Shown: positions 1 through 15,288 of the stretch, piece by piece
How the letters are laid out: the number at the start of each line of letters is the position of its first letter
Position numbering within the stretch: the first letter of the stretch is position 1
Assembly: GCA_045652425.1 (NCBI GenBank)
Contig: JAZRUG010000017.1
Coordinates: 16,003-80,002, forward strand
Direction of reading: 5' to 3'
Length of the DNA: 64,000 bases
Origin: Eubacteriales bacterium
GTDB lineage: Bacteria; Bacillota; Clostridia; Oscillospirales; CAG-272
Notes under the pieces: generated by a model
Database searches by the model: none
Told to the model about the DNA's origin: nothing
The model's input: only the letters and a program-made list of their open reading frames with translations
Program-made: the position numbers and the translations under genes

Positions 1-2196
1 TTCTCTGCATATCATAAATGCCGACAAGAAACCAATACCAAAGTTGCTAATCGGCTTGTATTCTATGTCCAATTCTCGATATTCATCACCAGAATAAAAA
101 CTTCTACCTATACTAGTGAAGTAACGCTCAATTTTAAACCTATCCATACCTGTTCCAAAATCTTTAATTCTAAAAAATTTGCGTCCTTGTGATTGTCCAA
201 GCGTTATATATATAGTTTTATCAAAGTCACTATCAGTAGAAGCTCTCACCGCTATTGCATCAATAGAATTTTGAATTAACTCTCTAGCAAACACCTCTTT
301 TTTTGCATAAATATTATCTCCAGTCAAAAGAGGAATAAGTGTTGGTATATAAGCTTCAAAATTATAGTTATCAATAGCATTGGGACTATTATCCTTTTCG
401 ATTTTAGGTGTTAAATAATATAACTTTAGTCCAACAGTCTTAAAATAATCCTCAAACTTGCTAATAATCAATTCAAATTCTTTAACAAATAAAACTGCTA
501 ATTTATGTGCAGTAGCAGAATTACACCGAAGATCAATAAATGCACTTCTGCGGTCAGCGTCAGAATGAATCATTATTTTCTGAACAGGAATATTTTGATG
601 AAACTCTGTTTCATCAAGTTTTATATTTACTTTGTATTTAATGTATTTATTATAGAAACTACCTGCATAATATCTCAACATCAAATATATGTCTGTTATA
701 AAAATCCCAATCATACTAAATGACAAGTAGTACTTTGTTTTTTTGCTTTGAAGATTACCAAAAATTTCATCACATTTTTCTTTTAATTTATTCAGATCAC
801 TTTGCTCAAATATCTTTAAATATTGCTTTTTATCAAAGCCTACATCCGGAATGTTATTAAATAATAAATCATTTAAAATATTATAATATGAAGCATCAAT
901 ATTTTCTTTACCCAAAATTTGTTTTATTTTAAGTACCCTATAATTCATAGCGTATAGTAAGAAAAATACACACAAGCTATTTGTTTCAAATATTTTGTGT
1001 ATCTCTTCAAAACCAACAAATACACTTTCTAACCACTTAAGCATATTGTTATAATCGTCTGCTACAATGTTAATTTTTTCAATTGCATCAGAATATAAAG
1101 AAAACAATTCTGGACTATTTAATTTCAATATATTAAGAAGCTTGACACTTGCAAAATTATCTCTGCTTTTAGGCGGAATTTGTCTAGTAATTATAGGTTC
1201 TGATTGATCATTGTTACATACAAATTTTCGTTGTACCAACTCTACATCACTGTCTTTATCATAAAAATCAATAATGTTAAATGTATGCTTTGCAACCCGT
1301 TTAGTACCTACGGAACCACCAGCTATAACGTTAATAACACTTTTGGGATCCTCATAATAGGAATCTGTAATCAATGGTCTTTCTAAATCAAAATGTTTAT
1401 GTCCGTGTAGTACAGTCTTTACGTGAGCTTGTTGTAATTGTTGAATTATGTTTGTATAATTTCGTATAAGACTGGAGTCACCATATTTATTATGAACCTC
1501 TGGAAATAAATAAAAATGATGATGGAAAAACGCAATTATATTGTAGTCATCATATTTTTTTAATTCTCTCTTAACCTTTAACAGTTGATTAGGAGTTATC
1601 TCACCAAAATCAACAAAAGATTTGTTTTTCATCTGTGTGTCTACAAAACCTAATAATTTTTTCTTTTCAATACCAAATGTATTAAACTGCGAATCGTCAA
1701 TTCTTTCTATATCTTTAAGAATCTTGGAATCAAACAACGATTCTTTTTTTAAACCACACGAATTAAAACCAACAAAAGCAATCCTGTTTTCATCGTATGT
1801 TTTTAAAAGAGAGAAATCATCAGCATCATAAAAATCAGGAATTAAACCATAAAATCCATTTAAAAAAGCACTATATTTAGTCCAACGTTTAGATTCATCA
1901 TCTGCTCTAATAATATCGTGATTACCCGGAACAAACAAAAAATCACTTTTTGTTATATTTGTAGAAGCTTTTAACTCTTCAAAAATAATATTAAAAAAGT
2001 TTATAGCTTCAGATACTATACTATCACTTTCACCGCATGTACCTTCGAATATATCGCCAGTAACAATAACAGCTTGTATCCCATTAATATTTTCGTTTTC
2101 TATATCAGAAATAATTCTGTATGCAATATTTTTTGATTCCATATATGTGTCACCAATATGAATATCAGACAAATGAAGTACCCTAAATAGTTTCAT
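1..2196 (-). CDS. Calcineurin-like metallophosphoesterase fused to a central helical region and an Hsp90/MORC-like GHKL ATPase domain. Partial: the 3' end lies beyond the window start.
   Basis: Absent from the ORF track because there is no stop inside the window. My translation of the minus strand from ATG 2196-2194 (GGAGGG 2204-2209 upstream) has no stop down to position 1 (732 codons). Metallophosphoesterase motifs: LSDIHIGD (DIH at 2158-2166), VTGDIFEG, VPGNHD (1915-1929), FFHHH, LHGHKH. GHKL motifs: ELIQNSIDA (256-282), DFGTGM (145-162), NFGIGFLSAF (16-45). Confidence 0.8.
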   Translation of the reverse strand, partial: MKLFRVLHLSDIHIGDTYMESKNIAYRIISDIENENINGIQAVIVTGDIFEGTCGESDSIVSEAINFFNIIFEELKASTNITKSDFLFVPGNHDIIRADDESKRWTKYSAFLNGFYGLIPDFYDADDFSLLKTYDENRIAFVGFNSCGLKKESLFDSKILKDIERIDDSQFNTFGIEKKKLLGFVDTQMKNKSFVDFGEITPNQLLKVKRELKKYDDYNIIAFFHHHFYLFPEVHNKYGDSSLIRNYTNIIQQLQQAHVKTVLHGHKHFDLERPLITDSYYEDPKSVINVIAGGSVGTKRVAKHTFNIIDFYDKDSDVELVQRKFVCNNDQSEPIITRQIPPKSRDNFASVKLLNILKLNSPELFSLYSDAIEKINIVADDYNNMLKWLESVFVGFEEIHKIFETNSLCVFFLLYAMNYRVLKIKQILGKENIDASYYNILNDLLFNNIPDVGFDKKQYLKIFEQSDLNKLKEKCDEIFGNLQSKKTKYYLSFSMIGIFITDIYLMLRYYAGSFYNKYIKYKVNIKLDETEFHQNIPVQKIMIHSDADRRSAFIDLRCNSATAHKLAVLFVKEFELIISKFEDYFKTVGLKLYYLTPKIEKDNSPNAIDNYNFEAYIPTLIPLLTGDNIYAKKEVFARELIQNSIDAIAVRASTDSDFDKTIYITLGQSQGRKFFRIKDFGTGMDRFKIERYFTSIGRSFYSGDEYRELDIEYKPISNFGIGFLSAFMICRE

Positions 2197-2393
2197 AAAA
2201 ATGCCCTCCACTTTTTGTGTTAAGCAAATTATACCATAATATGACATAAAACGCAATATAACATTAACTATTTAGTACAATACCTTTATAAAAAATATAC
2301 AGCCAAACTCGATTGCATTTGAAGTAGTTATTTTGTGTTTAAGATATATACTTCAACAAAACACTTAAAAAATTATGTTTTTTAATATATACT

Positions 2394-2422
2394 AAAAAAG
2401 GTAGTACCCACAAGTACTACCT
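2394..2422 (-). terminator. Rho-independent terminator after the integrase remnant
   Basis: Stem aggtagtac/gtactacct (2399-2422) with A-run 2394-2399, which is a U-run on the minus strand. Confidence 0.6.
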
Positions 2423-2430
2423 TTTTATCA

Positions 2431-2874
2431 TTACTTACCTAGCACAATACTATCAAGCTTAGTTGCCGCTTCCATGTCCATCTCCGGCAATACGTGGGTA
2501 TAAGTGTTAAGCGTTACACTAACATCAGCATGTCCTAGTCTTTGCTGAACTACCCTTGGGTTAACACCGGCTTGAATTAATGCTGTTGCGTTGCTGTGAC
2601 GGAGATCGTGCAAACGTATATCAGGCAAGTTGTTTGCTTGTATGAATCTCTTCCACTTCCTTGTCATAGCGTCCGGAGTCATAGGAGAGCCGTCTTTCTG
2701 TCTTATTACAAAGTTTAAGTCTTGGTATCCTGTTCCGTATTCCTCTCTATCATGGCAATACTGTTCTTTAGCCATATTCAGCACAGACACAACCTCATCA
2801 CCTATCTGAACGTCTCTGATACCAGCTTCGCTCTTAGGTGCTTTAATAATAAAGCCGTCCTCACCTCTAACCAT
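2431..2874 (-). pseudogene. Tyrosine recombinase (phage integrase family), C-terminal catalytic fragment only
   Basis: The 147-aa ORF carries HDLRHSNAT...LGHADVSVTLNTYTHV (the H-x-x-R, H and Y catalytic part). The N-terminal core-binding region and first catalytic Arg box are missing, with stops upstream. Full-length integrases are about 350-400 aa. Confidence 0.75.
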
Positions 2875-2954
2875 ATTACTTCTTACCTTTATGATATTAT
2901 TATCTAAGTCTATAATATATATTTACAGCAATAAGTTTTACGCTAAAACCGTCG

Positions 2955-3025
2955 AGCCGACCATGAACAACAGAAAAGCCGTCCAAAAAGAACAGTCTAA
3001 ATCCTGACTATTCCTGATGAACGGC
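2955..3025. repeat. 71-nt direct repeat, copy 1 (pairs with 3772-3842)
   Basis: agccgaccatgaacaacagaaaagccgtccaaaaagaacagtctaaatcctgactattcctgatgaacggc. 62/71 identical to copy 2 by hand alignment. Confidence 0.8.
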
Positions 3026-3073
3026 ATGGAATTCCAATGAATGATGAAGCATTGGCTTTGCCAATATAAAGCA

Positions 3074-3110
3074 CAAGCTTCGCTTTTGTAAAGCGAAGCT
3101 TGCTGTTTTT
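3074..3110. terminator. Hairpin terminator downstream of the GyrI-like gene
   Basis: Stem caagcttcgctt/aagcgaagcttg (3074-3102), followed by a T-run on the plus strand and a weaker U-tract on the minus strand. Confidence 0.5.
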
Positions 3111-3125
3111 TAAAAATGTGCCGGA

Positions 3126-3635
3126 CTAAACTACAAAATAACAGTAATCAAGAATTACATTTCCACTTTCGTCAGGCGTAGTATACCGAGGGCACACACA
3201 GTTTTCAAATGAGTATACTGCACCTTGTTCGTCACGCCACAATCTCATACCTTTTTCTTCGATATTTTGTTTGCAGGCACTTGTATTGTGCACTTCACTT
3301 TCCTTACCTCTGATCCAACAGGTTCCTAAACTCAAATCTTTAAAATCTATGTAAATAAATCCATCCGGTACAGGTGTATTTTCGGGAGTAAACATACCAA
3401 TGTAATATTCAAAGGGCTGCCCTTCTGCCCGTTTTTCAACACCAACATATCCTCCGCCATTCTCCCAAACAGAAAGGATTTTATCCGTTCCTCCCATAAC
3501 CTGCTCCAGAAGATCAAACCAACCGTTTTGCCACCATTCGCCCCAGTGACCAAAACTGTTGTACTTTTTTCCGATAAATCTCATCGAGGGTATGTTCTCT
3601 TTAAATACCTTAACAATATCAGCCATACTAAACAC
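3126..3635 (-). CDS. GyrI-like / effector-binding-domain small-molecule-binding protein
   Basis: 169-aa ORF with pattern PSMRFIGKKY...FEYYIGMFTPE...DGFIYIDF...YSFENC, typical of GyrI-like/AraC effector-binding domains. Assigned by resemblance only. Confidence 0.5.
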   Translation of the reverse strand: MFSMADIVKVFKENIPSMRFIGKKYNSFGHWGEWWQNGWFDLLEQVMGGTDKILSVWENGGGYVGVEKRAEGQPFEYYIGMFTPENTPVPDGFIYIDFKDLSLGTCWIRGKESEVHNTSACKQNIEEKGMRLWRDEQGAVYSFENCVCPRYTTPDESGNVILDYCYFVV

Positions 3636-3771
3636 TCCTTAACATTCGTTTTTTCAAAAAACGGCCGTATCTTTTGACTATCATGTTAATTGTATCACGG
3701 CAATCATCATTTTTCAATATATTTCAACGAAAAGTTGAGATATAACATCTTTACTGCGATAAATATTATCA

Positions 3772-3842
3772 AGCCGACCATAGATATCACAAAAGCCGAC
3801 CAAAAAGAACAGTCTAAATCATAACTATTCCTAATGAACGGC
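3772..3842. repeat. 71-nt direct repeat, copy 2 (pairs with 2955-3025)
   Basis: agccgaccatagatatcacaaaagccgaccaaaaagaacagtctaaatcataactattcctaatgaacggc. Same orientation as copy 1; the two copies bracket the GyrI-like gene. Confidence 0.8.
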
Positions 3843-4206
3843 TATACGAAAAACTTGTGGGACTTGTTTGCCCTTCCGAAAATATAGTCGAGTCCGTTTC
3901 GCAAGGTAAAACCTTGCTCTGCCCTCTCCTTATTTTCGTTAATCGCCTCTAAAAAACAGTCCACAGGACTGTTTTTTATTTCGGCTCACCCACTCCCTCC
4001 GGATAACCCGTCGGCGTGAGGTAAAGTAAAAATGAAATCGTGGCATTACCACGATGATATCCTCACTATGCTCGGATGAAATCTTCGGTGTTCCACCTCA
4101 GATGAAATTAAATCCGCCTTTCTTATCCCCGCGTCAGCGGGATTTCATCGCGAAGCGATTTCAACCATCGCAGATGGATTTATTCCGTCGAAAGCGGATT
4201 TAGTTG

Positions 4207-4239
4207 AAAAAAGAAAAGCAAGTCATTCGACTTGCTTTC
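4207..4239 (-). terminator. Terminator of the tRNA-Leu/tRNA-fMet transcription unit
   Basis: Stem gaaaagcaagtc/gacttgctttc with A-run 4207-4212 (a U-run on the minus strand), immediately 3' of the tRNA. Confidence 0.7.
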
Positions 4240-4246
4240 TTTTTTC

Positions 4247-4323
<77 letters not shown>

Positions 4324-4344
4324 ATATTAAGTTTAGTACAACTT

Positions 4345-4434
4345 TGGTGCCGGTGACCGGGGTCGAACCGGTACGGGAGTTGAATTCCCACGGGATTTTA
4401 AGTCCCGGGCGTCTGCCAATTCCGCCACACCGGC
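4345..4434 (-). tRNA. tRNA-Leu (anticodon TAA)
   Basis: Reverse complement starts GCCGGTGTGGCGGAATTGGCAGACGC. Anticodon stem-loop CGGGA-CTTAAAA-TCCCG, long variable arm, T-arm ACCGGTTCGACCCCGGT, acceptor CACCGGC-A-CCA. Confidence 0.9.
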
Positions 4435-4737
4435 ATTTTTGGCTGCCCGTATATTATACTACAACTCATTTTCTTTGTCAATACTTTTTCGTAATTATTA
4501 TTTTTTTAATACCTGCTAACCCTTTTGTTTCCGCTCTACTCAATTATACGCAATATATTTGGTATTTATTCCTTCTTTGTAAAAAATTTATATAAAATAA
4601 CCGACAGACTATTCGTGAATCGCCCCTACTCCGAAAATTTGTGTAAACAATCCCCTCCGCCATTTCTCTTAAAAAGCAAAGAACCGTCTTCAAAAAAGAC
4701 AGTTCTTTGTTTTTACTAATGTTTTTACTAAAAAACC

Positions 4738-5115
4738 TTATGCGAGATATGCTATTACCTCTACCTCAACCAATGCACCTTTCGGTAACTCCTTTACCGC
4801 AAAGCAGCTACGCGCGGGGGCAGACGTTATATATTTTGCATATACTTCATTAAATGCCGCAAAGTCTGCAATATCCGCCAAAAAGCAAGTCGTCTTTACC
4901 ACGTTATCAAATGTAGCTCCCCCTGCTTCAAGAACTGCCGCAAGGTTCTTCATAACCTGCTCTGCCTGTTCTTTGATACCAACAGCATCTATATTGCCTG
5001 TTTCAGCATTAATCGGAAGCGTTCCCGACGTATAAATAATATTGTTCACCATAATCGCCTGAGAATAAGGTCCTATCGCCTTCGGCGCTTTATCTGTAGA
5101 AATCTTGTTAATCAT
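4738..5115 (-). CDS. ridA: RidA/YjgF family reactive-intermediate deaminase
   Basis: 125 aa with KAPKAIGPYSQA...TSGTLPI...VKTTCFL...AR..VEV, the canonical family signature. Confidence 0.9.
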   Translation of the reverse strand: MINKISTDKAPKAIGPYSQAIMVNNIIYTSGTLPINAETGNIDAVGIKEQAEQVMKNLAAVLEAGGATFDNVVKTTCFLADIADFAAFNEVYAKYITSAPARSCFAVKELPKGALVEVEVIAYLA

Positions 5116-5307
5116 AAAGAAATACCCCCTTCTTTTTCTTCATTATATCATACTTTTCCCGAAAATAAATAGATTTTGAAAAATCGCTCGTTTTTCTGTA
5201 TTGATTTTTATTAATACTCGCTATAGGTTTTTTCAATTTGCGAAGGGTTGACATATATGATATAATGTAAAGACTAATGATTTACAAGAAGGAAAAGGGA
5301 CGAATAT

Positions 5308-6216
5308 ATGACCATTCAACAATGCAACTATGTTCTGACTATTGCAAAAGCAGGCTCTTTTAACGAAGCGGCAAAACAGCTTTTCATCGCGCAATCCACC
5401 TTGTCTTTAAGCATAAAATCGCTTGAAAACGAACTTGGAATAAAAATATTCGAGCGTTCCGGAAACGGTGTTTTTCTTACCGACGACGGCTCGGAATTTG
5501 TCAAATATGCTCGGCAGATTGTTGAAAACAGTAATTTTGTTCAAGAAAGATATAAATCTCCAAACGTTCACCAGAAGTTATTTATCGTAACACAGCATTA
5601 CGACTTTATCGCCGATATTTTCGGCAAGATGTTAGGCGAAATGCCCGATTGTGATTACAACTTCGCGCTGAAAGAAATTCAAACTCACGACGTCATATCG
5701 GAGATTGAAAAATCCCACAGCGACATTGGGGTTATCGCCATAAAAGGAAGCGATTCCGATATATTAAAACGATACATAAACAAAAAGGGCGTAACGTTTA
5801 CCCCCGTCTTAAAGGCAGCTCCTCATATTTATATGAGAAAAGAACACCCATTGGCAAACAGAGAAAAGCTTACAAGAGCTGACCTGCGCGATTACCCATA
5901 TATCGCCTACGAGCAGGGTGAACACAATACCCCGTTCTTCACAGAAGAATTAACGCAAGGTATCCCCGGAAACAAGCTCGTAACCATAAGCGACAGAGCG
6001 ACTCTTATGAACGTGCTTATGATTTCCGACTCCTACACTATCGGTACGGGAATTATGCCCTCGGCGCTTAACAAAGGATATATCGTCAGCGTCCCCCTTG
6101 AAAGCGATGATTTTTATATGATAGGATACCTTTTAAACGAAAACAAAAAGACCTCACCTTTGGTTGAAAAGTTTATAAAAATGCTTTGCGAAATGGAAGA
6201 AAGTATAGAAAAATGA
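5308..6216 (+). CDS. LysR-family transcriptional regulator
   Basis: N-terminal HTH (IQQCNYVLTIAKAGSFNEAAKQLFIAQSTLSLSIKSLENELGIKIFER) followed by a substrate-binding domain of typical length. Confidence 0.9.
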   Translation: MTIQQCNYVLTIAKAGSFNEAAKQLFIAQSTLSLSIKSLENELGIKIFERSGNGVFLTDDGSEFVKYARQIVENSNFVQERYKSPNVHQKLFIVTQHYDFIADIFGKMLGEMPDCDYNFALKEIQTHDVISEIEKSHSDIGVIAIKGSDSDILKRYINKKGVTFTPVLKAAPHIYMRKEHPLANREKLTRADLRDYPYIAYEQGEHNTPFFTEELTQGIPGNKLVTISDRATLMNVLMISDSYTIGTGIMPSALNKGYIVSVPLESDDFYMIGYLLNENKKTSPLVEKFIKMLCEMEESIEK

Positions 6217-6857
6217 CTCATATAGTTATGGTTATACTTGAGGTTATCGGCACAATAGCTTTTGCCGTAACAGGCGCGTTTCTGTCGGTAAAAAGACACC
6301 TCGACATTTTCGGTGTCGTATTTATCGGCTGTATCACGGCTGTGGGTGGCGGTATAACAAGAGATATAATAATCGGTAAGTTTCCGCCTACGATATTTTC
6401 ACATACACCAATATTGCTGATAGCCGCAATAACCTCTGTAATAGTATTTTTGATTTCCTATCTTCACGCAGATAAGTTTGAACAGATACGCGAGAAAACG
6501 GAAAAGATAAACAACGTTTTTGATGCAATTGGTCTTTCAGCCTTTGCTGTAACAGGTACGGAAGCGGTATATCACAGCGAATACGGCGGATATTTTGTAC
6601 TTGCTGTACTTATGGGTATGCTGACAGGGGTGGGCGGCGGAATATTCCGTGACATACTTGTAACAGAAACTCCCTACGTTTTGAAAAAGCACGTATATGC
6701 ATTGGCGGCATTGATAGGCAGTATAATATACTACGTATTGCGTGGTTTTGTCGGCATCACGCTTTCTTCAATAATCGCAATGGTTCTCATATTTTCCATT
6801 CGTATGTTGGCAACCAAATATCATTGGAAACTACCCAAGGTAAAACTTGATAATTAG
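6213..6857 (+). CDS. UPF0126 (YadS/YicG, TRIC-like) membrane protein
   Basis: Two UPF0126 repeats (GGGITRDI, GGGIFRDIL) in a multi-TM protein. I prefer ATG 6213, which overlaps the LysR stop (ATGA), over the track start at 6186. Confidence 0.8.
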   Translation: MTHIVMVILEVIGTIAFAVTGAFLSVKRHLDIFGVVFIGCITAVGGGITRDIIIGKFPPTIFSHTPILLIAAITSVIVFLISYLHADKFEQIREKTEKINNVFDAIGLSAFAVTGTEAVYHSEYGGYFVLAVLMGMLTGVGGGIFRDILVTETPYVLKKHVYALAALIGSIIYYVLRGFVGITLSSIIAMVLIFSIRMLATKYHWKLPKVKLDN

Positions 6858-6894
6858 GAATAAATAAAGCACTAACAAAAAGTCTGTACACACA

Positions 6895-7243
6895 GAAAGC
6901 CCTTTCCTGTGGGTAGCGAAGCGGCGTGAGCGTAATGAATGACAGTCCGGTGGACTGTCAGAACGCGAGCGTGACCGAACCGCAGTAGAGGGTGGATGCC
7001 GTTTAAAAAAGGCGATATTTTCTACATTGAGATTTTAATCAGTAGAAAATATCGCCTTTTTAGGCAGACGGGATGAGAGTTCAGCTTTAAGTTTTTGAGC
7101 CTTTATCCGTTGAATATTACTTTAAGTTTAGTTTACAAAGATAATTGTTTTCTTATTACATAGGAATAAAGGCTGTTCTAATCGTTTACCGAGCTCTCAT
7201 CCCGTCACGCTTCGCGTGCCACCCTTCCCACAGGAAAGGGCTA
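6895..7243. repeat. Compound nested inverted-repeat intergenic element
   Basis: Outer inverted repeat agccctttcctgtggg (6897-6913) / cccacaggaaagggct (7228-7243). Inner pair gacgggatgagag (7068-7080) / ctctcatcccgtc (7194-7206). Internal hairpins gacagtccggtggactgtc (6941-6959) and a perfect 20-bp stem aaaaaggcgatattttctac/gtagaaaatatcgccttttt (7006-7061). Confidence 0.75.
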
Positions 7244-7279
7244 AACAATATACCTGCATATTTGTGTATTTGTGCACTC

Positions 7280-7900
7280 TTATTTTACTTTTATAAGAAG
7301 CAATTTACCGCATTTTACCGATACTTCGGCAACAACTCCTTTTAATACTTCGTTGCTTATACCGTATTGATATGAAGTTTTTATTTCGGCATTATCAAGA
7401 GGATATTTTGCGTTCTTTATGGTTATACCTTTGGCTTCGCCCGTTATGTTAAGCAAAGAAAAGAATGAAAAATTATCGTCAATATATTTAGGCGTTTCTG
7501 AAACAAGCTCCATTTCCGAGTAATCGTCAACTATTACTGCCTTTTTTTCCGCACTGTCCAACAAGTCAAGAATATACAGATTTCCAAGAGTATGGTCAAG
7601 CCTTTGCCCTATCGCTCCGACTATCAGAAATTCATCAAATCCGCGCCTTATCCCCTCTTTGACAGCAAATACCGTATCGGTATCGTCTTTTTCGCAGGGT
7701 AAGACTATGGTTTCAGCCTCTGTATTCGGTCTTATATATGAGTCAAAATCTCCTACTATAAGATTTGTTTCTATACCAAGATCTTTCTGATGTCTTAATC
7801 CGCAATCGCAAAATATATTAAAGTCATCATTTTTCAAATATTTTCTTACTGCGGCATAGTCCCCTATTTCCGCGCCGCCGACAATTACACACCTACTCAT
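7280..7900 (-). CDS. thiN: Thiamine diphosphokinase
   Basis: 206 aa with VIVGG...IVGDFDS...DDTD...GA.G.RLDH, the TPK motifs. It is the last gene of the thi operon. Confidence 0.88.
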   Translation of the reverse strand: MSRCVIVGGAEIGDYAAVRKYLKNDDFNIFCDCGLRHQKDLGIETNLIVGDFDSYIRPNTEAETIVLPCEKDDTDTVFAVKEGIRRGFDEFLIVGAIGQRLDHTLGNLYILDLLDSAEKKAVIVDDYSEMELVSETPKYIDDNFSFFSLLNITGEAKGITIKNAKYPLDNAEIKTSYQYGISNEVLKGVVAEVSVKCGKLLLIKVK

Positions 7901-8697
7901 TCATTTATCTCCTTTAAACAAAATGCGTGATTCATAGGACCCGAGCCTTTGCCTATATCAAGCATATCGGCAAGGGCTTTTGATATATATTCTTTCGCCT
8001 TTTTTACCGACTGTTCAAGCGAAAGTCCTTTCGCAAGATTTGAAGCTATAGCACTTGATAAAGTACAGCCTGTACCGTGTGTATTCGGATTGTTTATCCG
8101 TTTTCCCTTAAACCAGGTAAATTCGCCCTTTGAATATAACAGATCATTTGCATCGTTTATACTATGTCCCCCTTTTAGCAAAACAGAACAGCCGTATGAA
8201 TCACTTATGTATTTTGCCGCTTTTTTCATACCTTCTTCATCATTAACTGTCACCCCGGTCAACACTTCGGCTTCGGGAATGTTTGGAGTTACAAGTGTTG
8301 CTATAGGCAATAAGTCTGACGTTAAAGCAGAAATTGCCTCGTTTTTCATAAGCTTTGAACCGCTTGTTGCAACCATTACGGGATCTACAACAATATTCTT
8401 TGCCCCATAATGCTTTAATTTCTCTGCGATAACTTTAATAAGCGTACTTGAAGATACCATACCTATTTTCACGGAATCTGGAAATATATCCTCAAATACT
8501 GCATCAAGCTGGTCTGCAAAAAACACGGGGCTGACTTCCATAATACTCCGTACGCCTGTAGTGTTTTGAGCTGTCAACGCAGTTATTACACTCATAGCGT
8601 ATACACCGTTCACAGTCATAGTTTTCAAATCCGCCTGAATTCCCGCGCCTCCGCTGCAATCGCTTCCGGCAACGGTCAATGCTGTTTTCATTTTCAT
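7897..8697 (-). CDS. thiD: Hydroxymethylpyrimidine/phosphomethylpyrimidine kinase
   Basis: TALTVAGSDCSGGAGIQADLKT...HGTGCTLSSAIA. Start chosen at ATG 8697 behind AAGGAG; the track ORF extends to 8742. Confidence 0.9.
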   Translation of the reverse strand: MKMKTALTVAGSDCSGGAGIQADLKTMTVNGVYAMSVITALTAQNTTGVRSIMEVSPVFFADQLDAVFEDIFPDSVKIGMVSSSTLIKVIAEKLKHYGAKNIVVDPVMVATSGSKLMKNEAISALTSDLLPIATLVTPNIPEAEVLTGVTVNDEEGMKKAAKYISDSYGCSVLLKGGHSINDANDLLYSKGEFTWFKGKRINNPNTHGTGCTLSSAIASNLAKGLSLEQSVKKAKEYISKALADMLDIGKGSGPMNHAFCLKEINE

Positions 8698-8804
8698 TAA
8701 TAAATCTCCTTTCATTTTCAGCATCGTTTTATTAAGCGGCATAAAGTGGTGCTCCCATTATGCCGCATTCTGTAACATTGTCAAAGTAAAGTTCAATTAT
8801 TTTT

Positions 8805-9428
8805 TTAGTTTTCAAAAGATTTTTTTAGTTCAATCACCGCTTTTTGCGGATCAGATGCTTTCATCACAGCCGAGACAACGCATATTCCGGATATACCTAT
8901 TCCTTTAAAAATATTTATGTTATTCTTGTTTAATCCGCCAATAGCATTAACCGGAATATCTACCGAATTACAAATATCCCGTAAAGTTTCAACCGGTGTA
9001 AGAACCGTTACCACTTTCGTGGTGGTCGGGTAAATAGCCCCTACCCCAAGGTAATCAGCCCCCCGTTTTTGAGCATCAATTGCCTGTTCAACTGTTTTTG
9101 TAGTTGCGCCGATTATTGCTTTTTCTCCCAAAATACCTCTTGCAATGTCAATCGGCATATCGGTTTGACCGAGATGAACGCCTTCAGCCCCCACCGCCAA
9201 CGCAACGTCTACCCTATCGTCAATAAGCAACGGAACGTTATATTTCTGAGTCAAGGTATGTACTTTTTTAGCAAGGTCGATATATTCCCTTGTCGTTCTG
9301 TTTTTTTCGCGAAGCTGTACAAGTGTAACACCGCCTTTTAATGCCTCTTCTATTCGATATAAAAACTCATTCTCACCGAAGTCGTTACTATCTGTAATAA
9401 AATAAAGAGTTGAATCAAATTTTTTCAT
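8805..9428 (-). CDS. thiE: Thiamine-phosphate synthase
   Basis: 207 aa with LYFITD...VQLREK...INDRVD.A....GVHLGQ.D, the ThiE pattern. Confidence 0.9.
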   Translation of the reverse strand: MKKFDSTLYFITDSNDFGENEFLYRIEEALKGGVTLVQLREKNRTTREYIDLAKKVHTLTQKYNVPLLIDDRVDVALAVGAEGVHLGQTDMPIDIARGILGEKAIIGATTKTVEQAIDAQKRGADYLGVGAIYPTTTKVVTVLTPVETLRDICNSVDIPVNAIGGLNKNNINIFKGIGISGICVVSAVMKASDPQKAVIELKKSFEN

Positions 9429-10231
9429 ATTTCCTTAATCTCCATATCCAAATATTTTTCTAATTCACTATCAGTCAAAACCGAAAGTTTATCCATAAGA
9501 GCAACAAAAAAGCTTCCGTTGCCTCTTTCCGTTTCTGCCAACTGACCGCATATTCCCAAAACGGTACAAGCGGTTACGGCTGCGTTTATCCCGTTATTCT
9601 CGGACATAAACACAGCGCATAAAACCCCAAGCATACAGCCGGTTCCCGTTATCTTTGACAACTGAGGACTACCGTTTTTTATAAGTATTACTTGTTTACC
9701 GTCAGAAATAACGTCCGTTTTTCCGCTTGCAAGAATAACGGTATTATACTTCTTCGCAAGAGATGCCGCCGCCCGACTTATTTCAGCTATCCCTAAAGAC
9801 TTATCCGCATCCACTCCTGCCGAGCAATAGCTATCATCAAACAAGGCGTTTATTTCTGAATAGTTACCTTTTATAAGAGAGGGCTTTGCAACATCTACAA
9901 GCTTTTTCGCATACGCTCTGCGGTGTACGGAACAAGCGATACCTACTGCATCTATAACACAATGAATATTATGACTTTTAGCTGCTTCCGCCGATATCAA
10001 CATAGATTCCATTCTAACATCTGTTATGTTTCCAAGGTTCAGCAAAAGAGCATTGGCTGTTGAAGTTATCTCTGCAACCTCCTTTGGATGTTCAGCCATC
10101 ATAGGCCGTCCCCCTACAGCAAGTACTGCATTTGCGCATTGGTTTATTGAAATAGGGTTAGTTATACAGTGAATAAGAGGGGAGTTTTGTTTAACCCTGT
10201 TTCTGATTCTGTTTATTGTTTCAGCCGTCAT
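9425..10231 (-). CDS. thiM: Hydroxyethylthiazole kinase
   Basis: PLIHCITNPISINQCANAVLAVGGRPMMA...GTGCMLG. 4-nt overlap with thiE. Confidence 0.9.
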   Translation of the reverse strand: MTAETINRIRNRVKQNSPLIHCITNPISINQCANAVLAVGGRPMMAEHPKEVAEITSTANALLLNLGNITDVRMESMLISAEAAKSHNIHCVIDAVGIACSVHRRAYAKKLVDVAKPSLIKGNYSEINALFDDSYCSAGVDADKSLGIAEISRAAASLAKKYNTVILASGKTDVISDGKQVILIKNGSPQLSKITGTGCMLGVLCAVFMSENNGINAAVTACTVLGICGQLAETERGNGSFFVALMDKLSVLTDSELEKYLDMEIKEI

Positions 10232-10959
10232 TTCTCCTTAGCCTTTCCTGTCTTTTTTATTATGTAATATACAACGGCGCTTGCCCCGAAAACAACAAGC
10301 GAAGCATAAGAAACATAGGTGAGAATGGGATTATTAAGCTTAAACATATCATTTACTACGCTGATAACCACAAAGCATACTCCGCCAAACGCGGCGATTG
10401 TAACCGCATTCGAAAAAACACTGCTTTTATCCGCATAGCATCTTGCAACAAGAAGCGTTTGAATTTTTGTAAGCATTCCGTTATCGGCAAGCTTACGCAA
10501 GAATACATAGGCAATACTTCCACCGATAAGCGTTCCGCAAACGAATGATGGAATGTAGAATAACCAGGTTAGTCCCTCTTTTCCCATAATATACGCCATA
10601 ACCGGATATGAACATAAAGCGCCGATAAATCCGGTACCTATAACTTCTCCGATGACTGCAAACAATATCTTTCCTTTTGACAGTCTATATAAAACACCTG
10701 AAAGGAACGCGCCAAACACAGCTCCGGTTAAAGCTAAAGGCGGAATTGCCATCGTCATCATTCTGATGATACCAATAAGCGTCGCGCATAAAAGCGAATA
10801 CCAGGGGCCTAAAAAGACCGAAACTACAATATTGATAAAATGTGCCATTGGGCACATACCTTCCACGCGCAAGAACGGAGATATTACCACACCTATTGCA
10901 ACGAACATGGAAAGCACCGTCATTTTGAGTAAAACCTTTTGTTTTTTCATAAATATCAA
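10228..10959 (-). CDS. thiW: ThiW-like ECF S-component (predicted thiazole transporter) with a C-terminal two-helix extension
   Basis: Multi-TM protein with GMCPMAHFINIVVSVFLGPWY, as in ThiW. First gene after the TPP riboswitch and overlaps thiM. At 243 aa it is longer than typical ThiW. Confidence 0.65.
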   Translation of the reverse strand: MIFMKKQKVLLKMTVLSMFVAIGVVISPFLRVEGMCPMAHFINIVVSVFLGPWYSLLCATLIGIIRMMTMAIPPLALTGAVFGAFLSGVLYRLSKGKILFAVIGEVIGTGFIGALCSYPVMAYIMGKEGLTWLFYIPSFVCGTLIGGSIAYVFLRKLADNGMLTKIQTLLVARCYADKSSVFSNAVTIAAFGGVCFVVISVVNDMFKLNNPILTYVSYASLVVFGASAVVYYIIKKTGKAKEK

Positions 10960-11350: not shown

Positions 11351-12535
11351 TTATATAATTTTTCCGTTTTTTACTACATTTGTTACGTTAAACTCTTTAT
11401 CTGCAAACACAAAATCTGCATTTTTTCCTACAGATATACTGCCTAAAGAGTCTTGCATTCCGATATGCTTTGCAGGTGAAGACGAAAGCATTTTCGCCGC
11501 AGTTACAACGTCAACACCGTAATCAACACAAAGCACTCGAAGGGCTCTGTCCATAGTGCAAATACTTCCCGCATACGACGTCATATCGGGCAGCTTTGCC
11601 ACTCCGTCGTCAACAATAACGTAACTGCCGTTGGTCTTGCTTCCAAGCATACCGTTCTTTTCTTCGGTACAAGCAAGTCTTGTCGCATCGGTTATACCAA
11701 GCACCTTATCGGCGCCTTTTATCTTCAACGCCAATTTTAAGCAGTGTTCGGGTATATGTCTTCCGTCACAAATCAGCTCAACGGTTACGGAATCGTCAAG
11801 ATACGCAGCCTCAACTATTCCCGCAGTAACAATCTGTTCCCTCTTCTTATATGCCGTACAAGCATTATAAAAATGGGTAACGTGGGAAAATCCCGCCTTA
11901 AATCCTGCTTCTGCCTCATATCCCGTTGAATCGGTATGTGCTGCAGCGCATATTATGCCTTTTTCACACATAAGTTTGGCAAATTTTGCGCTATTCGGTA
12001 TCTCGGGTGCCGCATCCCAACGGATTATATCGCCGTTTGCAGCTTCAAGAAGTTCATTTACCTCATCAAAATCAATATCACGAATAATATCGCCTTTTTG
12101 CGCTCCCTTGCTCTTGCCGTTTGCATTAGAAAAGTACGGACCCTCTAAATGTAACCCCTGGGCTATATCGGCATAGGCGCTTTTTTGTTTGAACTCGTGA
12201 TAGGCGTTTATAAAGCCTATAAGCTCTTCTTTTGATGCGGTCATAGCCGTCGGAACAAGGGTAGTTGTACCTTTTTTCAGATGCGCTTTAACCGCCGTTT
12301 CAAAAGCGTCGGACGTTCCGTCCATAAAATCCGCGCCGCCTCCGCCGTGAATGTGCGCGTCAATAAAACCGGGGAATATATAATCTCCCGCCGCGTCAAT
12401 AATATCAGCGCCGTCGGCAAAAATATTCTTTCCGATATTCGCTATCTTGCCGCCCTCGACAAGAATATCTGTATTATCAGATATTCCGTCGGGCAAAACA
12501 ACGCTTCCGTTTTTAATAAGAAGCTTATTATTCAT
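11351..12535 (-). CDS. nagA: N-acetylglucosamine-6-phosphate deacetylase
   Basis: 394 aa with PGFIDAHIHGGGGADFMD, HLEGP and AAHTD.. motifs. Confidence 0.9.
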   Translation of the reverse strand: MNNKLLIKNGSVVLPDGISDNTDILVEGGKIANIGKNIFADGADIIDAAGDYIFPGFIDAHIHGGGGADFMDGTSDAFETAVKAHLKKGTTTLVPTAMTASKEELIGFINAYHEFKQKSAYADIAQGLHLEGPYFSNANGKSKGAQKGDIIRDIDFDEVNELLEAANGDIIRWDAAPEIPNSAKFAKLMCEKGIICAAAHTDSTGYEAEAGFKAGFSHVTHFYNACTAYKKREQIVTAGIVEAAYLDDSVTVELICDGRHIPEHCLKLALKIKGADKVLGITDATRLACTEEKNGMLGSKTNGSYVIVDDGVAKLPDMTSYAGSICTMDRALRVLCVDYGVDVVTAAKMLSSSPAKHIGMQDSLGSISVGKNADFVFADKEFNVTNVVKNGKII

Positions 12536-13386
12536 TACTTGTTATATACTCTGATTTCGGGAATAGGGTTCTTTGTTGCTTCCGCGATAGTATAAATCGT
12601 TGCATCGGGGTGATTGCGAAAGAGTGAGCAAGGAACCTTTGCTGTTATATCGCCGTGAAGAATTTTACGGAGAGCGCCTGCGTTCCAGTCACGAGGCATA
12701 ATCATAATAATCTTCTTTGCCATAAACATTTCTTTCATACCAACGGTAATGCAGTATTCGGGAATAGCGTTAAGGTCAGCGCCACAGTTCATATATGCGT
12801 TTATAGTTCTTGTTTCGCGGCTAATCTTAAGAACACGGGTAGGTCTGTTTGCAAATTCTTCGTTTGTACAAGCTTCTCCGGGTTCGGGCGGCTCGTTGAA
12901 AGCATAGTGGCCGTTGATACCAACACCGCCGAATACCATGTCAAGCTTGCCGTACTTGTTTATTATTTCCATAACCTCTTCGGGCTTACTCGGGTCGGGG
13001 AAATATCTGTTCTCGGGAAGAACGTTGAGTTCTTCGTCAACTATATCGTAGAAAATTCTGTTCATACCGCCTCTGAAAGACAACGGATCGTCCATATCAA
13101 CGTATGTTTTATCATCTTTGAGATACTCGTCCATATTGATAAATACGCAGTTCTTCAAAGAAATTCTGTGCTTGTTTACGAGATATGAAAGTCTGAAGTA
13201 AGGGCCGAGAGGACCGTAAGGTACTACCATAACGGTAGGCTCACCCTTCTTGTTATTTTCTTCAATAACCGCAAGTACTTCCATAGCGACTTTCCAATAG
13301 ATATCAACCTCAGCGGTGCTTACGTCAAGCTTAATGCTTGAACCCTTACCCAAATCTTCGGGTTTAATAAGATTATAGTGTTCCAT
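12535..13386 (-). CDS. Glucosamine-6-phosphate deaminase/isomerase family protein
   Basis: FINMDEY and GGVGINGHYAFNEP motifs. 1-nt overlap with nagA. Confidence 0.8.
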   Translation of the reverse strand: MEHYNLIKPEDLGKGSSIKLDVSTAEVDIYWKVAMEVLAVIEENNKKGEPTVMVVPYGPLGPYFRLSYLVNKHRISLKNCVFINMDEYLKDDKTYVDMDDPLSFRGGMNRIFYDIVDEELNVLPENRYFPDPSKPEEVMEIINKYGKLDMVFGGVGINGHYAFNEPPEPGEACTNEEFANRPTRVLKISRETRTINAYMNCGADLNAIPEYCITVGMKEMFMAKKIIMIMPRDWNAGALRKILHGDITAKVPCSLFRNHPDATIYTIAEATKNPIPEIRVYNK

Positions 13387-13409
13387 AATGTATTCCTTTC
13401 GTTTTTATG

Positions 13410-15116
13410 TTATTTATTTTCAATATAATATTTTATTCTATCGTTTACTTTCTTTCTGAACGTCATCATCTTTTCGGGTGTTTCGGGAGTATTAAAGAAA
13501 TTGGGAACACCCATATTGTCATCAATAAGCTTTTTACACTCTTCTCTGCCGCCAAGACTTTCAAGCAACTGCAATGCTCTCATATCAATAAGTCCATCGG
13601 TAAATATCTTTTGATGAATAGACTGTAAAGGTTTTCTGTCTATACCGGGATATACACTGTAAGTCGTTCCTGCATTTGGGAAACCACAACACGGATCAAT
13701 TGCCGGATTATAAAGACCGTGTGCGAGTCTGCCGTAGTAATAGTTGTAGCCCCAATGCAAAAAGCCCTTTGCATTATAATAATAAAGCATATATCCAAGC
13801 GCTCTGTTTCTTTCTCTCGGTTGCTGAATAAGTCTGTTTGACAGACCGTCATAGCACTCTCCGCCCGTGTAATAAATCCAGAGGTCATCGCACTTATCTA
13901 CAAAATCCATAGCCTTGTGAATTCGCGCAATAGGCGTTTTTACAAGTCCGCTTTCGTAGTATTTATAATCGGACAATGCATCGCCGACAGTATAACCTTC
14001 AAGCAAATCCCTAATCTTCGAGCTTGATTTTTCATAAGTTTCAAGATGTGTTTCGTTAGGTTCATCGGAAATGTGGAAGAGAGTGGTTTTGTCAAGCCCC
14101 TCGCCCTTAAGAAAATCCAACACTTGCGGAATATAGCTTCTTAAAAATTCAACGTAACCTTCTCCCGAAGCATCTGTTTCCCAGCCGAATATTTTCTTTG
14201 TTTCTCCATCAACCTCAGCAACTACTTTGGGTGCGTGTGCCGCCCCCCACTGTGTAAAGAAATGTGAGTGTTCAAAGAATTTGATTCCCGCTTCTCTTGC
14301 TACGTCAATATATCTCTTCATTAAAGAGAAATCGAAAGTATATTTGTCATTTTCTTTCTTTACTTTAACAAGCTGAACCGTCATTCTCTCCTCACCGATA
14401 GCAGTATCAAGTGCCGGTGTAAATGCAGGCATAAGTACCATATTCATACCGTTTTTTACTGCCGTACGAAGAAAATCTTTCATTACTTCAAAGTAGTCAT
14501 CGGAAAAAAGTTCAAGATTATAGTAATCTGCAAGACAGTCGTTGTGGAACCAGTTTGTATAATAAAGTGTCTGTTCGGGAAGGTCGGCATCAATAACGTC
14601 GAGAACTATTTCATTTTCCCCAACCTTTTCATTTCCCCAGTTGTATAACTCTATTTTTATTGTCTGCTTTCCCGTAGGCATTTCTTTGCCGTTTTCATTA
14701 ACAGTAAACCAAACCTGTCTCCAACTGTCGTTGTATGCCCCAAGGCTTATTTTTTCGTCAGGTTCAACACAACGGTAACCGATACCGCCGTGAATGGTCT
14801 GTCTTTGCACTTCGGCATTAGTGTTTTTAGGCATAAGTATATCGGGATACATACCGATAGGCAGCTTTGGACTTATCTTTGAAAATGAATGCATAACGGG
14901 TACGCACGCAACGTGATAAGTGCTTATATCCAGATTAGAAGTAATTTTAATAGTAAAATGCTGTTCGTCAGTAATTTTTTCATCAAAAAGCTTGTATGCC
15001 ATCTGGAAAGAAAAAGGCTCATTCTTACAAATAGAATACTCCTTTAATTCCGTAGCATCAGAGCCGTTTTCGGGTGTAATAAGAGTCAATGCATCGTACA
15101 GTTTAGTAAGAATCAT
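13410..15116 (-). CDS. DUF4091-type (GH123-like) glycoside hydrolase candidate
   Basis: 568 aa from ATG 15116 (AAGGAG upstream). The overall resemblance to DUF4091 proteins and the location in an amino-sugar cluster are my inference; no catalytic motif was verified. Confidence 0.5.
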   Translation of the reverse strand: MILTKLYDALTLITPENGSDATELKEYSICKNEPFSFQMAYKLFDEKITDEQHFTIKITSNLDISTYHVACVPVMHSFSKISPKLPIGMYPDILMPKNTNAEVQRQTIHGGIGYRCVEPDEKISLGAYNDSWRQVWFTVNENGKEMPTGKQTIKIELYNWGNEKVGENEIVLDVIDADLPEQTLYYTNWFHNDCLADYYNLELFSDDYFEVMKDFLRTAVKNGMNMVLMPAFTPALDTAIGEERMTVQLVKVKKENDKYTFDFSLMKRYIDVAREAGIKFFEHSHFFTQWGAAHAPKVVAEVDGETKKIFGWETDASGEGYVEFLRSYIPQVLDFLKGEGLDKTTLFHISDEPNETHLETYEKSSSKIRDLLEGYTVGDALSDYKYYESGLVKTPIARIHKAMDFVDKCDDLWIYYTGGECYDGLSNRLIQQPRERNRALGYMLYYYNAKGFLHWGYNYYYGRLAHGLYNPAIDPCCGFPNAGTTYSVYPGIDRKPLQSIHQKIFTDGLIDMRALQLLESLGGREECKKLIDDNMGVPNFFNTPETPEKMMTFRKKVNDRIKYYIENK

Positions 15117-15288
15117 ATTACTTCTCCTTTTGTTACTAAATAATACTTTACTACAATTATACAACACTCAAACAAAAAATAAAATCCACAATATCGACAT
15201 AACTTTGGACAATATTGGTGTTTTTTGTTGACATACCACCGTTTTTATTGTACAATACAGAAACCATCTACAGAGGAGAACAGAAAAT

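Follow-up and report, generated by a model that had tools for sequence, protein, structure and literature searches.

A metallophosphoesterase and an Hsp90-type ATPase encoded by one gene

The window analysed here is the whole stretch of 64,000 nucleotides taken from contig JAZRUG010000017.1 of a Eubacteriales bacterium (CAG-272 lineage). The gene in question lies at its left edge on the minus strand and encodes a metallophosphoesterase (MPP) fused to an Hsp90-type ATPase in one protein. Translation of the minus strand from 2196 to 1 gave 732 codons with zero stops, beginning with MKLFRVLHLSDIHIG at the ATG at 2196; an earlier note on this DNA, made from the sequence alone, had described the same stop-free frame running past the window edge. 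It had also remarked that the gene is missing from the list of open reading frames (ORFs), which is the case because the frame runs off the window edge. A database twin (P0001) of 1,184 aa was found with 100% identity across the 732 aa of the window, and the remaining 452 codons of the gene fall past the edge. Window 1-2196 is the first 732 codons of this intact 1,184-aa gene. The following features were assigned to it within the window.

2204..2209, minus strand: ribosome-binding site GGAGGG, 7 nt before the ATG at 2196, read from the sequence
2197..2258, minus strand: leader upstream of the gene and moving with it; similarity to homologous loci at the DNA level ends here (blastn against 33 loci)
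1162..2196, codons 1-345, minus strand: MPP domain with a small beta-rich extension, the proposed effector (Pfam Metallophos, AlphaFold2 (AF2), Foldseek)
385..1161, codons 346-604, minus strand: linker of helices at aa 350-520, then the pre-ATPase segment at aa 526-604; neither belongs to a known family
1..384, codons 605-732, minus strand: first part of the Hsp90-type ATPase N domain (HATPase_c_3, HSP90/HtpG models, Foldseek)

The nucleotide alignments between the window and the 33 loci end between 2196 and 2258. Since inter-locus similarity stops within about 60 nt upstream of the start codon, the mobile unit is the gene itself. A promoter scan upstream of the gene gave no more matches than shuffled sequence did. 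The GC content is 0.28 over window 1-2500 vs about 0.37-0.46 further in.

Domain layout and conservation

Profile analysis of the full 1,184 aa with Pfam detected Metallophos and HATPase_c(_3) only. Metallophos (PF00149) covers aa 4-268 (E 2e-10, 41.8 bits vs a cutoff of 21.5), while HATPase_c_3 covers aa 639-731 (E 9e-6 in the 732-aa fragment, 31.7 bits vs a cutoff of 25 in the full protein). Beyond the effector part, the full-length protein was divided as follows, together with the motifs of both enzymes.

aa 605-830: GHKL N domain
aa 830-1000: alpha/beta middle-like domain
aa 1000-1184: helical C-terminal domain
MPP motifs: DIH at aa 11-13, GD at 47-48, GNHD at 91-94, HHH at 225-227, GHKH at 265-268
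GHKL motifs: ELIQNSIDA at aa 639-647, DFGTGM at 679-684, NFGIGFLSAF at 718-727
N-domain boxes: N box E639/N643/D646, G1 box D679-G683, G2 box G720/G722

Both the full calcineurin-type motif set in the first ~270 aa and the three GHKL boxes had been pointed out in the earlier note, and each motif was recovered in its place. The residues D11, H13, D48, N92, H93, H225-227, H264, H266 and H268 of the MPP domain were invariant in two alignments. In the main one, which contained 21 sequences and reached down to 41% identity, E639, N643, D646, D679, G681, G683, G720, G722, G769 and T770 of the GHKL domain were invariant too. By these residues, the active site of the N-terminal binuclear-metal phosphoesterase is intact, and the Hsp90-type GHKL N domain has its catalytic Glu, Mg-binding Asn and glycine boxes.

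The two domains are separated by the ~290 aa for which no motif had been recognised at first sight. Pfam detected nothing between them, and codons 346-604 had no match in Pfam, NCBIfam or PDB. Helices were predicted at aa 353-518 and 563-625, the region of aa 518-628 being of low confidence in AF2. The AF2 model of aa 1-345 alone was good (pLDDT 83, pTM 0.84), and the whole-protein model was of medium quality (pLDDT 71.7, pTM 0.50) with aa 518-628 and the ATP lid poorly modelled.

Conservation is unevenly distributed along the protein. Identity to distant members is ~50% in the MPP domain, 35% in the helical linker, 65% in the segment preceding the N domain (pre-N segment), 63% in the N domain, 25% in the middle-like (M) region and 15% in the C-terminal (C) region. 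Conservation peaks in the pre-N segment (majority fraction 0.81), which is also present in proteins with other N-terminal effectors. Relatives at 85% identity likewise diverge most in the M and C regions. Conserved enzymatic parts combined with variable M and C parts would fit a diversifying recognition surface, as might be expected of a module that recognises invader proteins.

Kind of phosphoesterase

The best family match of the MPP domain was NCBIfam NF053862 (DS9_1 anti-phage phosphoesterase, DS-9A) with E 2e-21 and 75-76 bits, a score below the cutoff of 420 that covers profile positions 195-479 of 486, corresponding to its MPP part only. The next NCBIfam matches, to CpdA (cAMP phosphodiesterase) and SbcD, were far weaker (about E 1e-6). 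When the model of aa 1-345 was compared with the PDB by Foldseek, the top 10 matches were all MPP enzymes (E 1e-11 to 2e-4), which assigns the domain to the alpha/beta sandwich fold of the superfamily. Among them were the following.

B. subtilis YydB: E 1e-11, TM 0.60 normalised to the query
SMPDL3A: E 4e-9
GpdQ: E 1e-8
Rv0805: E 5e-8
PhoD: E 6e-7
SbcD, tenth: E 2e-4

The best structural neighbour, YydB (PDB integrative model 9a6c), has 481 aa, near the length of the 486-position DS-9A profile. It differs from the window protein in being devoid of an ATPase half and in being modelled in complex with a separate protein, YydD.

The domain had initially been called Mre11/SbcD-like, a label for which the matches give little support. 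It belongs to an explanation in which such a nuclease is coupled to a DNA clamp of MORC or MutL style that loads on foreign phage or plasmid DNA, which is then degraded. The MPP superfamily does include Mre11 and SbcD, which share the five motifs of the window protein, and a weak SbcD profile match is seen over motifs I-III (aa 5-104, E 3.5e-6). This match is partial, though, and the scores are far under the cutoffs of the SbcD models (TIGR00619, 26-27 bits vs 77.65; PRK10966, 22-23 bits vs 450). By fold, nine better neighbours precede SbcD, and most of the characterised ones are small-molecule or nucleotide phosphodiesterases. No nuclease capping domain was recognised because Pfam found no further domain, and no conserved Rad50/SbcC partner was seen because no neighbour cluster is common to the 27 distinct loci compared. 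As sequence and fold both favour DS-9A, YydB, SMPDL3A, GpdQ and Rv0805, the Mre11/SbcD label is the weaker reading, and a nucleotide or small-molecule phosphodiesterase is more likely than an Mre11/SbcD-like nuclease.

Kind of GHKL ATPase

The clamp half of the same explanation was considered with the ATPase domain. The best NCBIfam matches of the full protein were the HSP90 family protein model (E 9e-26, aa 617-824) and HtpG (E 2e-22). Two PDB sequence searches gave 138 and 139 matches, and the best 60 of each were all N domains of Hsp90, HtpG or TRAP1; PDB profile matches to Hsp90/HtpG N domains reached E 2.5e-17. The likeness to Hsp90, HtpG and TRAP1 comprises the Bergerat-fold N domain with its RELIxNxxDA N box as well as the stretch preceding that box, which is covered by the profile alignment with HtpG (LIPLLtGdniYsskEvFaRELIqNsiDA). 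At the structural level, Foldseek with the whole model retrieved full-length TRAP1, Hsp90, GRP94 and HtpG over 440-745 aligned columns with E about 1e-8.

A putative middle-domain motif, xDVSRE with the invariant R927, is located 280-299 aa past the N-box Glu in 108 of the 117 members having both motifs. The spacing from the catalytic Glu is about 285 aa. We liken the Arg to the catalytic arginine of the NxSRE motif in the Hsp90 middle domain, for which the spacing would be comparable.

No MORC, MutL or GyrB was present among the listed NCBIfam matches or among the best 50 PDB fold matches. Therefore, of the "Hsp90/MORC spelling" initially attributed to the GHKL boxes, the Hsp90 part was borne out by the listed sequence and fold matches, the middle domain included, and the MORC part was not. 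Since every listed match was to Hsp90, HtpG or TRAP1 and none to MORC or MutL, a DNA clamp is not implied. Three points speak for the clamp-nuclease explanation nevertheless: GHKL proteins of the MORC/paraMORC type act together with restriction systems (PMC2292703), an Mrr_cat endonuclease is fused to the Hsp90-like module in one relative, and restriction-modification genes and Wadjet occur among the neighbours. Weighed against the Hsp90-type matches and the phosphoesterase results, a DNA-degrading clamp nuclease is judged unlikely.

The likeness of the ATPase half to Hsp90 is genuine and extends across both N and M domains, which raises a different explanation, namely a role in proteostasis or signalling: an Hsp90-like chaperone joined to a phosphatase acting on clients or second messengers, comparable to Hsp90-PP5 and without any part in genetic conflict. 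Hsp90-PP5 complexes were indeed among the fold matches, via their Hsp90 chains. The analogy with a PPP-type phosphatase was rejected, because the MPP domain is not of this type and no PPP enzyme appeared among the family (sequence) matches or the top 50 fold matches. The HtpG equivalog models gave 90 bits vs a cutoff of 455 (PRK14083) and 79 vs 371 (PRK05218), over profile positions 3-218 only; with scores at about 1/5 of the cutoffs, the domain is an Hsp90-like paralogue rather than a chaperone orthologue. The window protein further differs from Hsp90 and HtpG by about 600 extra N-terminal residues carrying the enzyme, by hypervariable middle and C-terminal regions without sequence match to Hsp90, and by its mobile, AT-rich and patchily distributed gene. 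In addition, the contexts of the gene are variable and of the mobile or defence kind, and other proteins have this module joined to SIR2, Mrr or HD effectors. All this makes a purely chaperone or signalling function very improbable.

A search of a viral fold library gave generic GHKL and MPP matches only (giant-virus Hsp90, phage RIIA, topoisomerase subunits). The ATPase subunits of phage topoisomerases were weaker matches and appeared in the viral library only. The RIIA proteins (T4-type 'protector from prophage-induced early lysis') were matched through the GHKL fold with E about 1e-5 to 1e-3, which is probably generic GHKL similarity.

Distribution of the family and exchange of N-terminal effectors

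A word-indexed search gave 211 relatives, the best 120 of which are nearly all 1,160-1,240 aa long with both domains. The few database names given to them are 'metallophosphoesterase', 'ATP-binding protein' and 'hypothetical'. With an exhaustive search, 121 representatives were obtained at 50% clustering and E <= 1e-30. Two peptide patterns recovered 22 loci from 185,579 species genomes. The loci belong mostly to Clostridia (Ruminococcus, Fimenecus, Oscillospiraceae, Lachnospiraceae, Clostridium, Tissierellales), with one metagenome-assembled genome of the Desulfovibrionaceae. The spread is patchy, and in 18 of 18 loci the gene has a lower GC content than its distal flanks. Generic GHKL matches at the level of HtpG were all that was found in 72,556 plasmid and 50,697 phage records, none of which contains a full-length homologue.

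Two genes encode the Hsp90-like half only: one in Blautia intestinihominis (locus L031, 9998-11905, 635 aa) and one in the archaeon Candidatus Methanimicrococcus odontotermitis (locus L033, 8003-9928, 641 aa). No MPP remnant was detected upstream of either by tblastn, and they are either products of truncation or versions that stand alone. The presence of one copy in an archaeon implies transfer between domains of life.

Other relatives carry a different N-terminus on a related Hsp90-like module.

SIR2_2: P0248, P0256
HD-CE: P0244, P0250
Mrr_cat: P0242
EAD11: P0257
Divergent MPPs: P0180, P0192

The Hsp90-like module of these relatives matches the window protein with E values of about 1e-22 to 1e-27, in many cases over the pre-N segment as well, whereas solved Hsp90 N domains match it more weakly (E about 2e-8 in a separate PDB search). 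An (I/V)x(V/L)(S/A)R motif was found in them at the R927 offset. The SIR2 domains of these relatives are similar to the ones in Lamassu LmuA and Thoeris ThsA. As is evident from the Pfam names HD-CE and EAD11, parts of these proteins have already been catalogued by comparative genomicists. As a separate observation, P0256 also has a match resembling sigma-70 region 1.1 at its C-terminus.

A decayed integrative island in the window

The gene had been described as lying on a decayed, tRNA-linked island beside a truncated integrase and two tRNA genes in very AT-rich DNA, and as probably acquired horizontally. Alignment with a related intact element (locus L038), the truncated integrase and the repeat remnants bear out the decayed island, the neighbouring genes are those described, and the horizontal acquisition is supported. 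The features concerned are listed below.

2431..2874, minus strand: truncated tyrosine integrase, the C-terminal 147 aa (39%) of a 378-aa protein (Phage_integrase, E 6e-19)
2394..2421, minus strand: hairpin and T-run after the integrase stop, read from the sequence and still homologous to the intact L038
2952..3025, plus strand: first copy (copy 1) of a direct repeat of 74 nt that derives from the left terminus of the intact relative of this island (matches L038 1882-2010)
3769..3842, plus strand: copy 2 of the 74-nt direct repeat, 86% identical to copy 1
4247..4323, minus strand: tRNA-Met (CAT), ARAGORN
4345..4434, minus strand: tRNA-Leu (TAA), ARAGORN and Rfam

The integrase fragment covers positions 86-170 of the 172 positions of the Phage_integrase profile only, and its cluster mates at 90% identity have 378 aa. 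At the nucleotide level it is 92% identical to L038 10655-11177. The hairpin at 2394..2421 is the likely integrase terminator, separating the integrase from the cargo gene; it was not flagged by a simple terminator scan. The 74-nt repeat occurs in two copies in the window vs 0 expected.

The intact sister element (L038-L041; L038 1780-15174) is 13.3 kb long and inserted in the 3' end of tRNA-Met. In L038 it is bounded by a perfect 47-nt repeat (1780-1826 and 15128-15174), and the 3' 47 nt of the tRNA-Met are the core of its attachment (att) site. It encodes Mor, DpnD-PcfM, DUF1643, an HTH_17 gene and the 378-aa integrase, directly downstream of which the cargo consists of a PycTM gene, two cyclase genes (Pycsar-like) and DUF4238. 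The gene of the window sits in the cargo slot downstream of the integrase that is held by the Pycsar-like genes in L038. The correspondence between both sequences is as follows.

Window 2394-2913: 3' part of the L038 integrase with the terminator, 92% identity
Window 2896-3025 and 3769-3853: L038 sequence just inside the left att site (attL)
Window 4023-4293: 3' end of tRNA-Met with the native flank outside the right att site (attR) of L038

The L038 region 2010-10655 is absent from the window. The segment 2896-4293 is not a simple integration and looks like tandem or rearranged remnants.

Genomic neighbourhoods of the homologues

An all-vs-all blastp of 466 ORFs from 34 sources revealed no conserved partner gene over the 27 distinct loci; the idea that partner genes may lie upstream of the window was thus not borne out. 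The tRNA and integrase association of the window is not general either: a tRNA is within reach in 2 of 27 other loci, and no close relative of the window integrase was found in any of the 27.

The contexts are variable and in several loci contain known systems. In the Tissierellales locus L028, the homologue is flanked by Gabija GajA/GajB, the end of which is 200 nt upstream, and by PD-Lambda-4_A, which begins 140 nt downstream. Wadjet JetA/B/C lies 2 kb downstream in Clostridium sp. AF27-2AA (L024). A PDC-S06 match was obtained in L016, and the same AAA_13-type gene as in L016 is found in L034 beside a type IIG restriction-modification gene (Pfam). In C. estertheticum (L036) the surroundings comprise NERD, DUF429, HsdR and McrBC fragments, and in C. 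botulinum B str. Osaka05 (L037) the homologue is placed between an ABC-3C-type system and a 1,203-aa YobI-type ATPase. Among 138 neighbour ORFs of 20 loci, PADLOC also reported mad2, mad3 and mad8 (MADS), AriA, PDC-S05 and PDC-S56. Altogether, known or candidate defence systems were present within 5-8 kb in at least 7 of the 27 loci, a qualitative tally that also counts the HicAB and Abi_2 genes described below. Mobile-element genes are frequent as well, with resolvases, recombinases and IS21/IS66 genes detected by Pfam on the neighbour ORFs, and an integrase and a tRNA are found in L007. The family HAD was not listed beside the gene in the Pfam-labelled contexts.

Several of these contexts have been weighed for a more selfish function, in which the protein would be an addiction or competition factor of mobile elements, either a toxin that stabilises its island or a weapon against rival elements. 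The L005 copy lies inside a region resembling a conjugative element, with RHS, ParE/Phd and TraG-type conjugation genes; L008-L011 carry HicAB, Abi_2, transposases and a DUF4231 gene, HicAB and the transposases being near the L008 copy. Both L005 and L008 are counted among the neighbourhoods that speak for defence as well. The window copy itself stands on an integrase island, and its gene is AT-rich and mobile. No antitoxin-like neighbour is conserved, though, the plasmid and phage records hold no full-length homologue, and many loci are chromosomal defence islands without obvious element backbone. Such a role is regarded as quite unlikely, and it would overlap with defence rather than exclude it.

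Two arrangements near individual homologues were observed. The DUF4231 gene of L008 (7369-7929; also in L009-L011) shares the strand of the homologue and stops 72 nt upstream of it. We take DUF4231 to be a SLATT-type two-transmembrane protein, and the gene may be a clade-specific partner. For Osaka05, the coordinates given for the ABC-3C and YobI surroundings are L037 4532-7952, paired with 12374-15985; the former contains the ABC-3C-type genes CTD6 and MC2 and a 619-aa gene that ends 49 nt upstream.

Comparison with known defence systems

Among validated systems, DS-8 and DS-9 come closest with regard to the effector, and VcSduA with regard to the GHKL domain. DS-8 (MPP and NACHT in a single protein) and DS-9 (an MPP protein with a HAD phosphatase) protect against phage (PMC13092281, Science 2026). 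Both were found with DefensePredictor, their MPP catalytic residues are required for defence, the MPP domain of DS-8 resembles SMPDL3A, and the substrates of both are unidentified (PMC13092281). The window protein shares with them a metallophosphatase, their essential catalytic domain, its MPP part being homologous to the DS-9A model, and with DS-8 the pairing of MPP and NTPase switch in one protein. It differs from DS-9, in which a HAD phosphatase is the second gene, as none is conserved here and the DS-9A score is 76 bits vs the cutoff of 420. DS-8 has a NACHT P-loop NTPase after the MPP domain, whereas the window protein has an Hsp90-type GHKL ATPase and no NACHT by Pfam.

VcSduA is a GHKL ATPase fused to a nuclease and confers ATPase-dependent phage defence (PMC12137116). 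It belongs to Shedu type I-D (paraMORC3), in which a GHKL ATPase is followed by a middle clamp and a DUF4263 nuclease; ATPase mutants and effector mutants each abolish defence, and the authors suggested a possible sensor role for Hsp90-like GHKL domains (PMC12137116; bioRxiv 2023.08.10.552793). Like VcSduA, the window protein is a stand-alone single polypeptide with a GHKL ATPase, a middle domain and a catalytic effector. The domain order is reversed, the effector being N-terminal in the window protein, and the effector is an MPP instead of a PD-(D/E)xK nuclease. No DUF4263 was detected in the full 1,184 aa by Pfam, nor any PADLOC Shedu match at E <= 10. The 2008 survey of paraMORC proteins lists no MPP fusion (PMC2292703). 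MORC and paraMORC proteins also differ by their restriction-modification operons with helicases or nucleases, since the present family is without conserved operon partner.

For conflict proteins with an NTPase, calcineurin-type phosphoesterases have been predicted to be exchangeable effectors at the N-terminus (PMC7159879, PMC8195603). These STAND/NACHT and TRADD-N-type proteins (Kaur et al. 2020, 2021) resemble the window protein by a variable N-terminal effector, an NTPase switch and a variable C-terminus, and their effectors include calcineurin-type phosphoesterase, TIR, SIR2, nucleases and EADs. The switch of STAND proteins is a P-loop NTPase, in contrast to the GHKL/Hsp90-type ATPase found here, and neither PMC7159879 nor PMC8195603 names Hsp90 or GHKL in the main text. 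By the tested features of each family, the window protein falls outside DS-9, DS-8, Shedu, MORC/paraMORC, SbcD and HtpG. No NCBIfam model was matched above its cutoff and no PADLOC model was matched, in line with the earlier statement that the fusion is not a named system.

A probable immune function

The gene most likely encodes an immune protein, because it lies on a decayed mobile island in the window and between known anti-phage systems elsewhere. The defence neighbours, the lack of a housekeeping match and the exchange of effectors make a role in defence or against mobile elements the best reading. The matches to characterised families are at domain level and far below cutoff, and the contexts are variable across the 27 loci, with no conserved neighbour. 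Of the proposal in the earlier note, a nucleic-acid-targeting defence or anti-plasmid effector, the part concerning defence and mobile elements is retained, and nucleic-acid targeting is unproven. It is considered probable that the protein is a stand-alone, mobile immunity (conflict) protein built as effector, linker and ATP-driven switch or sensor. A conflict or defence role is somewhat more likely than the full mechanistic picture, of which the specific relay and the MPP substrate are less certain.

In this picture, the protein would dimerise as Hsp90 does. The middle and C-terminal regions of Hsp90 hold clients; the variable surface of the window protein may correspond to this client-binding region and would bind a trigger derived from a phage or mobile element, probably a protein. 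An ATP-dependent closing of the N domains could then be passed via the conserved pre-N segment and the linker to the MPP domains, so that two phosphoesterase domains would be released or assembled and thereby activated. Active MPP would hydrolyse phosphodiester or phosphoanhydride bonds of a nucleotide-type substrate, nucleic acid being less likely. As outcome, replication of the invader would be halted, probably at the cost of the host cell (abortive infection).

Several points weigh against this interpretation. No PADLOC model matches the fragment or the full protein, even at E <= 10, and PADLOC on the neighbouring island ORFs of the window gave no match. The defence association is strong qualitatively and not statistically established, and some loci, such as L001 with Fic, stress genes and an ABC transporter, are not evidently defence islands. 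The fold alone cannot fix the substrate of the MPP domain, as MPP enzymes include nucleases. The assignment of R927 as the catalytic Arg of a middle domain is putative, based on motif spacing, and the last 379 aa have no sequence match in PDB at E <= 10. The arrangement of the domains is poorly modelled (pTM 0.50, with low confidence for aa 518-628 and the ATP lid). Dimerisation, trigger and signal transmission are all drawn by analogy, and the case as a whole is built on sequence, context and models.

Beyond the single family, the effector-swapped relatives suggest, tentatively, that ATPases of the Hsp90 family could be central to a group of prokaryotic immune proteins not recognised so far, in which an ATP-driven client clamp of the chaperone type senses the pathogen and interchangeable N-terminal effectors act. 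The effectors would then be metallophosphoesterase, SIR2, HD, Mrr nuclease and EAD11 adaptor, the window gene being the MPP-armed version. No paper was found on an MPP-Hsp90 fusion or on an Hsp90-type core of effector-swapping immune proteins, within an incomplete coverage of the literature. If true, Hsp90 would join the STAND and SMC/ABC types as a third NTPase chassis of modular immunity, and there would be a prokaryotic precedent for the involvement of Hsp90 in innate immunity. Confirmation of the immune role would mean a new defence family of the single-gene kind, common in the Clostridia of gut and rumen, which screens for defence in E. coli or Bacillus cover poorly, and would indicate that an Hsp90-type chaperone ATPase can be an immune sensor or switch, beyond NTPases of STAND, SMC and MORC type. 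It would also provide a second architectural context for the recently validated metallophosphatase effectors of DS-8/DS-9, and comparison of both could help to identify the hydrolysed substrates. With their SIR2, HD, Mrr and EAD11 effectors, the relatives amount to a natural experiment in which sensing could be told apart from killing.

Further observations on the island remnants

The tRNA-Met of the window is complete and is followed by the flank lying outside attR in L038. As a complete tRNA-Met adjoins native flank, this junction looks like an empty site. The remnants of the left end of the island start about 390 nt beyond the tRNA-Met, are partly duplicated and bracket the ORF 3126-3635. 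A 10-mer of the att core (CAAGTCCCAC) is found just before the second repeat copy.

The ORF 3126-3635 (minus strand, 169 aa), located between the repeat copies, showed a weak Cass2/GyrI-like Pfam match (E 0.037), and its exact sequence was not found in the protein collection. A sub-threshold match to the Rfam Gut-1 RNA was obtained at 4137-4206 on the minus strand (33.8 bits vs the gathering score of 50, E 0.001). This site lies in the downstream flank of tRNA-Met, a stretch rich in GATTTCAT-like repeats and 90% conserved with L038.

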